Source: Escherichia coli (lineage in GTDB: Bacteria; Pseudomonadota; Gammaproteobacteria; Enterobacterales; Enterobacteriaceae). From it: DNA of 64,000 nt. The position numbers are program-made. Positions 15,001 through 18,000 of the stretch are shown piece after piece. The stretch lies in the NCBI RefSeq assembly GCF_041886205.1, contig NZ_CP169029.1, one strand, 5' to 3'. Every line of letters starts with the position of its first letter. Position 1 is the stretch's first letter.

Positions 15001-18000
15001 CAGTAACCCGCGAATTTTTTCACCTTCACAAAATCTGTCTGATTCCAGGTATCCAGTTCATACGGTCCGGTTCCCACCGGATGAAAACCAATCTCCTTGC
15101 CATATTTTTCCAGCGCTGCCGGTGAAATCATCGCGGTCGCCGGATGGGCAAGAATATTAATAAACGCTGAGAACGGCTGTTTGAGGGTAATCTTTACCGT
15201 TGTCGGATCGATCGCTTCCGTTTTGGCAATATTCTTATACAGGTTGTAGCGTTTAAGATGATTCGCCGGATCGCTGGCCCGGTCCAGATTCGCTTTTACC
15301 GCCGCTGCGTTGAAATCGGTGCCATCCTGGAATTTAATGCCTTCCCGCAATTTCACGGTGTATGTAAGGCCGTCATCGGAAACGGTATAACTCTCCGCCA
15401 GCACGTTTTTCAGTTTCATCTCTTTATCCAGACCAAACAGCCCCTGGTAAAACGATTTCGCTACGGCCTGAGATAACGTGTCATTTGCGTCATACGGATC
15501 GAGCGTGGTGAAGTTCGATCCTACCGCTACCACCACATCTTTGGCAGCGAATGCACAAGATGCCATCAACGCTGTCGCAATGCCCAGCGCCACTAACCCA
15601 CTACGGTGTACAGCTCTTGCCATTTTATTCTCCGCCTGAATGTTATCTACGCATGAATGCGTATTCTGATTGTGGTTGTGCGACGTAATGCCCCGGCCCG
15701 ACGCATTGCAACGAGACGGCTGCCACCTCTTCGCCACGCAGATGAATATTGCTGGGAAGATCGTCCGACAGCAGTACACGCTGCGGTCGTTGTCGGGACG
15801 GTTCAGCGACCGGAACTGCCGCCAGTAATTTACGCGTATAAGGATGCTGCGGGTTTTCGAAGACCGCGCGCCGTGGACCAATTTCAACAATTTGCCCGAG
15901 ATACATCACCGCCACACGATGACTAATCCGCTCTACCACGGCCATATCGTGGGAGATAAACAGATACGCAATGCCGAAATCACGCTGGAGATCGAGCAAC
16001 AAGTTGATAATCTGCCCGCGAATAGAAACATCCAGCGCCGAAACGGCTTCGTCGGCAATGATCACTTTTGGATTCAATGCCAACGCGCGAGCAATGCAGA
16101 TGCGCTGGCGCTGACCGCCGGAAAACTCATGCGGGTAACGCCAGGCATGTTCAGGTAACAGGCCCACGCGCTCCAGCAACCACGCAACGCGTGCAGCCGC
16201 GTCTTTACCTGGCAATAAACCGTGTACACGCAGCGGTTCGATAATCGAATCACCGATGGTCTGACGTGGGTCCAGCGAAGCGTAAGGGTCCTGAAAAATA
16301 AACTGAATATCCCGGCGCAATGCCTGAAGTTTGCCGGGTGACAAGGTATCAATTCTCTGACCGTTAAAGATAATTTCGCCGCCCTGCGATTCGACCAGGC
16401 GCAGCAACGCCCGCCCGGTAGTGGATTTACCGCTGCCAGACTCGCCCACCAGCGATAGCGTTTCGCCAGGCCAGAGATCAAAACTGACTTTCTCAACGGC
16501 ATGCACTTCCCGCGTTACGCGATTCAACAAACCGCTGCGCAAAGGGAAACGGGTGACCAGATTACGCACCCGTAAAACAGGTTCGCCATCCACCACCGTT
16601 TTCTGCTCGATGGGGGGGGCCTGTTTCGCTGGATGTTCAAGCGATATCAATGGGAAACGTCGGGGATAATCTAACCCTTTCATCGCACCAAGTTGCGGAA
16701 CAGCAGCTAACAGCGCACGGGTGTAAGGATGTTGCGGTGCATGAAAAATCTGTTCGACGGTACCCGTTTCCACCGCCTCGCCCTGATACATCACCAGTAC
16801 CCGATCGGCAATCTCTGCCACCACGCCCATATCGTGAGTGATAAAGATAACGCCCATCGACATCTCTTTTTGCAATACTTTGATTAATTGCAGGATCTGC
16901 GCCTGAATAGTGACATCCAGCGCGGTGGTTGGCTCATCGGCAATCAGCACCGCCGGGCGGCATGACAGCGCCATCGCAATCATCACTCGCTGGCGCATCC
17001 CGCCAGAGAGTTGATGCGGATAACGTGAAAGAATGGTTTGTGCCTCCGGAATGCGTACCTGATCCAGCATCCGCTTCGCCTCGACCATCGCTTCTTCACG
17101 ACTGGCGTTCTGATGCAGATGAATTGATTCGGCAATCTGTTCACCCACAGAAAATACCGGGTTCAGCGATGTCATCGGCTCCTGAAATATCATCGCCATA
17201 TCCGCACCGCGCACATGACGCATTTGTGCAGCGCTCTGCTCGCTAAGTTCAATCACATCACGACTGCGCCGCCGCAACAGCATTTTATCGCACTGTACTA
17301 AACCGCCCGCCTGTTCCAACAGACGCATCAATGCCAGCGCAGTCACTGACTTACCGGAGCCGGATTCGCCAACAATTGCCAGCGTCTCACCGCGTTGCAG
17401 ACTAAAAGAGAGATTGCGGACCGCAGCTATTTTCTGCTGGTCCTGCATAAAGGCAATATTCAGATTTTCAACCGCCAGCACATTACCGGCATCAAGTTCA
17501 TCACTGTGTGGCAACGGTGTCCCCTTTTTCACGGTAGATACCGGTGGTTGGTGTATCGCCTGCGTAGCCCCAGGCGCGATACATTCCTTCGGTGTTAAAC
17601 GGTAGCGCGACGTTACCTTCATGGTCGATAGCGATTAAGCCACCGCTACCGCCAAGCGCAGGGAGTTTTTCCTTTACTACCCGCTCGCAGGCTTCCGCGA
17701 GACTTAATCCGCCGTAATCCATTAACGCGGCGATGTCATATGCCGCCAGCGCGCGGATGAAGACTTCGCCCGTGCCGGTACAAGAAACCGCCACACTGGC
17801 GTTATTGGCGTAGCATCCGGCCCCCACTAAGGGACTATCGCCAACTCGTCCGGGTAATTTATTGGTCATTCCGCCCGTGGACGTGGCTGCCGCCAGATTA
17901 CCGTCTAAATCCAACGCTACGGCCCCCACGGTGCCCATTTTCTGTTTTTCATCCAGTGGCGCACCGCTATGGTCGAGGACGGTTGCCCCTTCCTCGCGCG

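Follow-up and report, generated by a model that had tools for sequence, protein, structure and literature searches.

The 64,000-nt window analyzed here (Escherichia coli, assembly GCF_041886205.1, contig NZ_CP169029.1) carries on its minus strand iaaA (17501..18466; 321 aa, isoaspartyl peptidase/beta-aspartyl-peptidase), recognized from its ORF, the RefSeq annotation and its identity to the PDB EcAIII chains, and, downstream of it, gsiA (15643..17514; 623 aa plus stop), delimited by its ORF, its translation, the RefSeq ET201 CDS and the start of K-12 b0829. The order iaaA-gsiA-gsiB-gsiC-gsiD, all on one strand, is annotated in both ET201 and K-12, and iaaA lies upstream of gsiA in most of 80 orthologous loci. 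The gsiA product is a fused double ABC ATPase with two domains of the Opp/Dpp type: in a search of PDB sequences, the N-terminal half (about residues 9-277) matched OppD/DppD, the C-terminal half (about 307-608) matched OppF/DppF, and the fused protein Rv1281c matched in two stretches. It is 99.0% identical to the K-12 locus over residues 1-623 (tblastn), RefSeq calls the identical CDS in E. coli ET201 gsiA, and, judged from its sequence, the gene is gsiA, encoding the ATP-binding subunit of the GsiABCD glutathione ABC importer. That this system imports glutathione comes from the genetics of yliABCD, reportedly published by Suzuki and colleagues in 2005.

Read directly from the minus strand, the iaaA frame ends CGT GAA AAA GGG GAC ACC GTT GCC ACA CAG TGA and the gsiA frame begins TTG CCA CAC AGT GAT GAA CTT GAT GCC GGT; the two genes therefore share 14 dual-coding nucleotides (TTGCCACACAGTGA, 17501..17514), none of which (0/14 sites) varies among eight Escherichia/Citrobacter sequences. 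PHSDELDAG comes directly after the initiation codon of gsiA, TTG (17512..17514), and TGA, the stop of iaaA (17501..17503, as annotated), falls within gsiA codons 4-5. A Shine-Dalgarno (SD)-like AAGGGGA (17520..17526) lies within iaaA codons 314-316, 6 nt 5' of the TTG and so inside the range of 5-10 nt before an in-frame NTG. The in-frame ATGs nearest to the TTG are 36 codons upstream (17622..17620), where the mechanical 659-aa ORF of the ORF listing begins, and 22 codons downstream (17448..17446); further candidates in frame are a GTG six codons upstream (17532..17530) and a GTG at codon 12 (17481..17479). The original prediction had put the gsiA start at this TTG, in the last codons of iaaA and within 17501-17514 (which is exactly the 14-nt overlap), and had remarked that PHSDELDAG has no in-frame ATG close by; both points hold, and the start agrees with the RefSeq and K-12 annotation, with published initiation profiling and with the comparative data described below.

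In K-12 MG1655, gsiA (b0829, formerly yliA; NP_415350.2; U00096.3/NC_000913.3) has the same TTG start and the same 14-nt overlap with iaaA, the two genes being located at 867520..869391 (623 aa) and 866568..867533, respectively, and the N-terminus of its product is that of the window protein. The window and K-12 copies of gsiA differ by strain-level substitutions only, the window junction being identical to that of ET201 rather than to that of K-12, and all of the RefSeq records that we examined (RefSeq/PGAP) place the start at the TTG. A TTG start overlapping iaaA is already the reference annotation of E. coli; it is correct and ordinary, and of little importance beyond housekeeping. From sequence alone, the prediction did pick out a non-ATG start and set aside a long ORF that misleads, in agreement with an annotation that is curated and experimentally supported. 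In the literature that we searched, no paper contained both “gsiA” and “TTG” as whole words, and searches on yliA/ybiK and on the gsiABCD/CysB operon turned up nothing on the start site.

The predicted anti-SD duplex is far stronger for the TTG (-7.8 kcal/mol) than for the other in-frame candidates (-1.5 to -3.0 kcal/mol). Comparison of the start site across Enterobacteriaceae, one of the checks proposed with the prediction, found a start codon (TTG, GTG or ATG) at the aligned site in 20 of 25 enterobacterial orthologous loci; the aligned start always had the strongest SD (-5.5 to -11.3 kcal/mol), GGRG was conserved at the SD position in the orthologs, and ten related loci carried in-frame stops 3-27 codons upstream of the aligned start. 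Of 5426 complete E. coli genomes, 5353 carry an exact copy of the 30-mer that covers the SD, the TTG and the TGA, and 61 nt at the junction are identical in 5129/5422. The TTG is beyond chance since it has an SD at 6 nt, since the start codon is conserved yet changing among orthologs and since the 30-mer is near-fixed in E. coli.

Selection also changes frame at the junction: among the same eight Escherichia/Citrobacter sequences, 29 of the 35 variable sites in the 108 nt upstream fall on third positions of iaaA codons and 30 of 59 downstream fall on third positions of gsiA codons. Taxa that do not have the overlap allow the first gsiA codons to be judged as protein, and here Pro-His-Ser (codons 2-4) persists through synonymous codon changes, among them an AGT->TCT switch between serine codon families. 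Over codons 2-11 of these taxa, variable sites are only weakly skewed by codon position (8/6/10), and over codons 2-6 synonymous and nonsynonymous differing codons number 52 and 43, respectively; by these counts, the N-terminal tail of GsiA is only partly constrained, with the conservation of Pro-His-Ser as the informative part.

Ribosome profiling, another of the checks proposed, was already available in published form. Tetracycline-inhibited ribosome profiling (TetRP; Nakahigashi et al., 2016, DNA Res 23:193, PMC4909307) gives yliA/gsiA as entry 8 of Table S2, with a new TTG start shifted by -33 nt from the 2006 start. The signal was 46.3/140.5/70.6 at the TTG vs 0/0/2.98 at the 2006 GTG (mean ratio 137), although elongating iaaA ribosomes could contribute to it because the site lies within the iaaA coding region, a caveat that the TetRP authors stated for two other genes. 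The gsiA TTG is one of 63 TetRP sites that matched the 2014 re-annotation, which was released during that study, and the “confirmation” column for gsiA reads “6. nt.” The TetRP tables hold no second gsiA candidate within 60 nt of the 2006 start, a range that covers the GTG six codons upstream of the TTG (PMC4909307). Neither Ribo-RET (in vivo) nor INRI-seq (in vitro) gave any signal at the TTG or at any alternative gsiA start; in rich medium, expression of gsiA is probably low. An N-terminal peptide of GsiA is present neither in the TetRP N-terminomics (the column is blank) nor in those parts of the TRAINSPOTTER tables that we examined, which do contain one for iaaA, and expression in the media used was probably too weak for it; the supplements of Giess et al. 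(2017) have no gsiA entry.

The reading that we favor builds on firm observations of the sequence anatomy and its annotation, of TetRP signal at the TTG, of a start position conserved among orthologs and of frame-specific selection: translation of gsiA begins at the TTG (17514..17512) by means of its own SD, and the 14-nt overlap was derived by loss of the iaaA stop (with a probability of about 0.9). GsiA would then be a protein of 623 aa beginning (f)Met-Pro-His-Ser-Asp-Glu-Leu, encoded on a single iaaA-gsiABCD transcript on which the ribosome would be recruited by the AAGGGGA of gsiA itself inside the last iaaA codons. Initiation driven by this SD is what the duplex energy and its conservation point to, and initiation at this weak start codon may be helped by ribosomes completing iaaA 11 nt past it.

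The stop-loss part of this reading comes from the alignment of orthologous junctions. Leclercia, Lelliottia, Enterobacter, Phytobacter, Superficieibacter and Pseudocitrobacter have GAA-TAA-GGRG at the junction, and TAA is also present in Siccibacter (GGAATAAGGAG, aligned one column off). Escherichia and two of the three Citrobacter loci have GAA-AAA-GGRG instead, and Citrobacter FP75 has GAG-AAA-GGAG. The outgroups thus have a stop at the codon aligned to iaaA K314 (AAA, 17525..17527), from which the iaaA frame extends to the next in-frame stop, and the resulting eight-residue tail, KGDTVATQ, terminates at the TGA inside gsiA and is restricted to this clade. By parsimony, the overlap would be derived, through a TAA->AAA change in iaaA, in the Escherichia/Citrobacter sequences examined; such a change leads to read-through of the old SD, the spacer and the first gsiA codons, and with it to the eight-residue tail. 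IaaA of Salmonella, which we take to be 313 aa in length, would imply that the ancestral stop was kept there. Loss of the upstream stop codon is a known route to overlapping genes (reportedly described by Fukuda and colleagues in 2003), and iaaA is alike in kind to other co-directional overlaps that arose in this way, having a short, clade-restricted tail; it is one specific, dated example. What it adds is small: an overlap traceable to a single TAA->AAA change in iaaA, and an IaaA tail made from an old ribosome-binding site.

Translational coupling between iaaA and gsiA is plausible. The original prediction went further in holding that the overlap implies coupling, and there it overreached: gsiA has a good SD of its own, -14 nt is not an enriched spacing, the overlap has a simple stop-loss origin and no RBS-sequestering structure is conserved, and close relatives manage with a spacer of 10-13 nt. 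Coupling in an obligate form would mean that all or most initiation at the TTG comes from ribosomes fresh from termination at the iaaA TGA, 11 nt downstream, which move back to reinitiate, or from ribosomes that have just unwound the region, so that GsiA synthesis would depend on iaaA translation; we regard this as unlikely, but it deserves more weight than any other alternative. TTG is a weak initiation codon, and the two genes are co-directional neighbors with stop and start close together on what would be one mRNA, no terminator-like site having been found on the coding strand at or near their junction. Tight or overlapping iaaA-gsiA junctions also occur in other genera, in the form of ATGA, TGATG, GTGA and an 8-nt overlap. 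Coupled pairs such as trpB-trpA (TGATG) and those of the ATGA type likewise share operon and strand and have stop and start a few codons apart (Huber et al., 2019, 2023; reviewed in PMC12548453), and in the phage fr coat-lysis pair the start is upstream of the stop, as in iaaA-gsiA. Huber et al. report that reinitiation happens locally.

The only hint, an indirect one, of dependence on iaaA translation is the contrast between the initiation seen in vivo by TetRP at the gsiA TTG and its absence in vitro, where INRI-seq of an isolated gsiA fragment (30 nt of leader and 150 nt of ORF, without upstream translation) gave 0 signal in 5/5 replicates, even though the gsiA template was present at 151 CPM (median 125) and gsiB, gsiC and gsiD were detected. 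This negative is nevertheless weak, as about 30% of all genes, iaaA included, also went undetected. Unlike trpB-trpA and the ATGA-type pairs, iaaA-gsiA is spaced at -14 nt in both Escherichia and Citrobacter, outside the enriched coupling spacings of -4 (NTGA), -1 (TGATG/TAATG) and -8, although -4 or -1 is found at this junction in some other genera; it also has a good SD (-7.8 kcal/mol), and its coupling is putative. Relatives with the ancestral TAA combine a spacer of +10 to +13 nt with a strong SD, an arrangement suited to independent initiation. The window RNA does fold into a long-range stem around the SD and the TTG (-43.8 kcal/mol, z = -2.2), but the RNAalifold consensus of 19 orthologs contained no shared structure, the folds of single species differed, those of E. 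coli strains among them, and the SD was about 60% unpaired, which rules out an RBS-sequestering structure as the basis of coupling.

It is also conceivable, if quite improbable, that the loss of the iaaA stop in Escherichia and Citrobacter was adaptive, a gsiA that had initiated independently having come to be served, at its weak TTG, mainly by iaaA ribosomes that terminate 11 nt downstream and reinitiate backward. If this were true, output of the GsiA ATPase would follow translation of the isoaspartyl peptidase in stoichiometric proportion, and zero initiation on the fragment in vitro vs clear initiation in vivo would be its signature. The junction offers a natural pair of states in sister genera (a -14 nt overlap vs a spacer of +10-13 nt) for testing what non-canonical overlaps contribute to translational coupling.

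Initiation at the TTG by way of its own SD has also to be weighed against other start codons, and of these the codon-12 GTG (17479..17481), as the main or an additional start giving a protein of 612 aa, fares best and is still very improbable. It was the earlier curated start (2006, U00096.2), and a GsiA starting at Val12 would keep the whole ABC domain: no structure of GsiA is in the PDB, alignment to solved homologs begins only at about residue 9-13, and structure can therefore not separate the TTG from the codon-12 GTG. The TetRP signal at this GTG is 0/0/2.98 (Tables S2/S3; PMC4909307), and the 2014 re-annotation dropped it. Its SD energy is -3.0 kcal/mol, and codon 12 could not be a start in Escherichia L004, two of three Citrobacter loci and an Enterobacteriaceae MAG (L028), where it reads GTA or GTT, or in Pseudocitrobacter (L017), where it reads GTC; the conservation as protein of Pro-His-Ser, upstream of this codon, in non-overlapping taxa also argues against it.

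There is still less in favor of the GTG six codons upstream of the TTG (17532..17530; 629 aa), which has a slim chance at best: E. coli strains do carry it in frame, but it is GCG in Escherichia L004 and E. albertii and GGG in Citrobacter, it has an SD energy of -3.0 kcal/mol, an in-frame stop occurs at the equivalent position or downstream of it in Lelliottia, Enterobacter MGH24, Cedecea, Enterobacter Ag1 and Siccibacter, and TetRP reported no second candidate there although the site lies inside its search range (PMC4909307).

The upstream ATG (17622..17620), from which a 659-aa product would carry 36 initial residues read out of frame within iaaA (17515..17622), heads the longest ORF and is shared by E. 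coli, Escherichia L004 and Citrobacter, yet it is effectively refuted, as the prediction had foreseen in dismissing this extension: the ATG has an SD energy of -1.5 kcal/mol, is ACG in E. albertii and is used by none of the annotations examined, ten related loci have stops in the equivalent stretch, the extension peptide of Escherichia has only 17-23/36 identities with that of Citrobacter or E. albertii (37-40/40 in the IaaA frame), and the stretch varies mainly at iaaA third positions (29/35, as above). Because the TetRP search range was 60 nt around the 2006 start, the exclusion of this far ATG comes from comparative evidence only. The ATG 22 codons downstream was likewise considered and discarded; across the alternatives, rejection came from SD strength, conservation, in-frame stops, TetRP and frame-specific substitutions.

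As to other elements around the two genes, a scan of the whole window returned no Rfam family at gathering score, and the minus-strand terminator-like matches at 18266..18253 and 17801..17789 are well within iaaA, the total of four being about what shuffling leads one to expect. The one promoter-like match in 17200..18700 is TTTACA-17-TATATT (18545..18573, minus strand), 5' of iaaA, a candidate promoter for the operon by its match to the consensus.

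The iaaA (isoaspartyl peptidase, 17501..18466) and gsiA (glutathione-importer ATPase, 15643..17514) genes both lie on the minus strand, to which all junction coordinates given here refer. The 3' end of iaaA reads ...TAC CGT GAA AAA GGG GAC ACC GTT GCC ACA CAG TGA, with the TGA stop at 17503..17501, while the gsiA frame opens at 17514..17512 and reads TTG CCA CAC AGT GAT GAA CTT GAT GCC GGT; the two genes thus share 14 nt in both reading frames (17501-17514), and a Shine-Dalgarno (SD)-like AAGGGGA (17526..17520) lies 6 nt 5' of the TTG. E. coli gsiA (yliA) is already known to start here. 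RefSeq gives gsiA as a 1872-nt CDS from this TTG, with the 14-nt overlap, in the ET201, N56 and K-12 MG1655 records (in K-12, iaaA 866568..867533 and gsiA 867520..869391, NP_415350.2), and the original prediction of a TTG start inside the end of iaaA, with which annotation, ribosome profiling and ortholog comparison all agree, rediscovered the curated start already current. Orthology, domain architecture and genomic context all identify the product as GsiA. The junction was matched in 5425/5426 complete E. coli genomes and is fixed in the species: 61 nt are identical in 5129/5422 genomes, and a 30-mer covering the SD, TTG and TGA is exact in 5353/5426. Nothing at this junction is new in kind, and the sole modest addition made here is that the overlap is traced to loss of the iaaA stop codon (TAA to AAA).

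The 2006 annotation (U00096.2) began gsiA at the codon-12 GTG (17481..17479), giving 612 aa; tetracycline-inhibited ribosome profiling (TetRP) then listed yliA (row 8, Table S2) with a new TTG start, -33 nt relative to that annotation, at the site of the 2014 re-annotation U00096.3, released during that study (Nakahigashi et al., 2016; PMC4909307). The signal at the TTG was 46.3/140.5/70.6 vs 0/0/2.98 at the old start (mean ratio 137), and the 60-nt search range, which included the in-frame GTG six codons 5' of the TTG (17532..17530), held no second gsiA candidate; an in-frame ATG 36 codons upstream (17622..17620) lies beyond that range (PMC4909307). The "confirmation" column for yliA reads "6. 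nt", and no N-terminal GsiA peptide was found in the data of that study (PMC4909307). The site is within iaaA coding sequence and elongating ribosomes could add to its signal, a caveat that the TetRP authors raised for two other genes (PMC4909307). In vivo Ribo-RET and in vitro INRI-seq gave zero signal at the TTG and at every alternative gsiA start, and the part of the TRAINSPOTTER N-terminomics table covered here lists an iaaA peptide and no gsiA peptide. All that would mark a genuine TTG start was found, the N-terminal peptide excepted.

We fetched 80 orthologous gsiA loci and aligned their codons on the conserved VLAV strand. Of 25 enterobacterial loci, 20 have a start codon aligned to the E. 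coli TTG. It is TTG in Escherichia, Citrobacter, Superficieibacter and Pseudocitrobacter, GTG in Enterobacter, Lelliottia, Phytobacter, Kosakonia, Pluralibacter gergoviae and Siccibacter, and ATG in Leclercia, Cedecea and others; such exchange of Leu, Val and Met codons at a single aligned position is the hallmark of a start codon. The aligned start also has the strongest anti-SD pairing in each of these loci (-5.5 to -11.3 kcal/mol), and in the window the TTG pairs at -7.8 kcal/mol, the far ATG at -1.5 and each GTG at -3.0. An in-frame stop 3-27 codons 5' of the aligned start makes an N-terminal extension impossible in 10 loci. Pro-His-Ser follows the start in nine taxa in which iaaA does not overlap these codons, and since the codon changes there are synonymous (including an AGT to TCT serine switch), gsiA codons 2-4 are translated.

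The remaining in-frame candidates fare poorly. The codon-12 GTG is GTA, GTT or GTC in five loci (Escherichia L004, two Citrobacter, Pseudocitrobacter L017 and the Enterobacteriaceae MAG L028), and cannot act as a start there; a further in-frame ATG is gsiA codon 23 (17448..17446). The far ATG heads a 659-aa ORF in the mechanical ORF list, and the suspicion that this upstream extension is not real was borne out. Across eight Escherichia and Citrobacter sequences the 108-nt extension varies at 35 sites, of which 29 are third codon positions in iaaA and only 4 are third positions in the gsiA frame, and identity of the extension peptide drops to 17-23/36 while IaaA holds 37-40/40. These sequences are invariant over the 14-nt overlap, and 3' of it variation shifts to gsiA third positions (30/59 sites). 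The far ATG is ACG in E. albertii; with substitutions following the iaaA frame, the extension does not code for GsiA.

The ortholog alignment of the junction (A1) suggests how the overlap arose. Leclercia, Lelliottia, Enterobacter, Phytobacter, Superficieibacter and Pseudocitrobacter read ...CGN GAA TAA GGRG...NTG, and Siccibacter reads CAG GAA TAA; iaaA ends in these taxa just 5' of the gsiA SD, followed by a 10-13 nt spacer. In Escherichia and Citrobacter AAA replaces this TAA, and codon K314 of iaaA (17527..17525) aligns to the stop of the seven other genera. By parsimony, the ancestral iaaA stop was lost in Escherichia/Citrobacter, and iaaA now runs on across the SD, the spacer and the opening codons of gsiA as far as the TGA. 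Co-directional overlaps are known to arise in this way, by loss of the upstream gene's stop. The IaaA tail in both genera comprises eight residues, KGDTVATQ, from the old gsiA ribosome-binding site (RBS) and first gsiA codons; one beta subunit chain (PDB 2ZAL_B) ends at residue 315, a weak hint that this tail is not ordered.

The original prediction also took the overlap to imply translational coupling, a reasonable inference, and iaaA-gsiA partly resembles a classical coupled pair. The genes share a strand that carries no terminator-like site at the junction or close to it, the sole promoter-like match in 17200..18700 sits 5' of iaaA, TTG is a weak initiator, and the iaaA stop lies 11 nt 3' of the gsiA start. 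Reinitiation has been described as a local event for which the final 15 nt of the upstream gene suffice (Huber et al.). The junction is ATGA, TGATG or GTGA in other genera, and the isolated gsiA fragment showed no initiation in any of five INRI-seq replicates although its template abundance exceeded the median; about 30% of genes, iaaA included, were likewise undetected. Against this, gsiA carries a good SD itself, the two genes are +10-13 nt apart in sister genera, and -14 nt is outside the enriched coupling spacings (-4, -1, -8). A predicted long-range stem (17455..17585; -43.8 kcal/mol, z = -2.2), in which the last iaaA codons pair with gsiA codons 9-16 and enclose the SD and TTG, is absent as a conserved feature in orthologs and is probably fortuitous. 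Meaningful coupling of gsiA to iaaA translation seems rather unlikely, and adaptive, obligate back-reinitiation coupling improbable.

In most of the 80 loci, Burkholderiales included (Achromobacter, Bordetella, Paraburkholderia, Variovorax, Cupriavidus), the gene directly 5' of gsiA is an iaaA homolog, and this adjacency suggests a long-standing functional link between isoaspartyl peptidase and importer. Junction geometry is diverse (ATGA, TGATG, GTGA, spacers of 10-13 to tens of nt, 8/14-nt overlaps). In INRI-seq Table S3, a strong alternative initiation peak (156.9) marks an out-of-frame ATT ~8 nt inside gsiD (~13137..13144, minus strand; K-12 871897), and the peak at an in-frame ATT 15 nt inside iaaA (K-12 866582) is weaker. 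The moeB gene, which overlaps moeA by 1 nt (TAATG, ~19903..19907, plus strand), showed, like gsiA, zero in-vitro initiation in five of five replicates. No Rfam family reached its gathering threshold in the whole 64-kb window (1..64000). The window follows ET201 coordinates exactly up to iaaA and is offset by +2 nt at moeA, so compared with ET201 it has a 2-nt indel within the iaaA-moeA divergent promoter region (18467..18669); a candidate promoter-like TTTACA-17-TATATT lies there at 18573..18545 on the iaaA strand. By the ET201 annotation, from which overlap positions are approximate (+2 nt after 18466), mntR/ybiR (~29917-29920) and glnP/glnQ (~37106-37109) overlap by 4 nt on the same strand, and gstB/yliI (5177-5180) and ybiO/rlmF (~40167-40170) by 4 nt convergently; the 14 nt of iaaA/gsiA are the longest same-strand overlap from window position 1 to ~50000.
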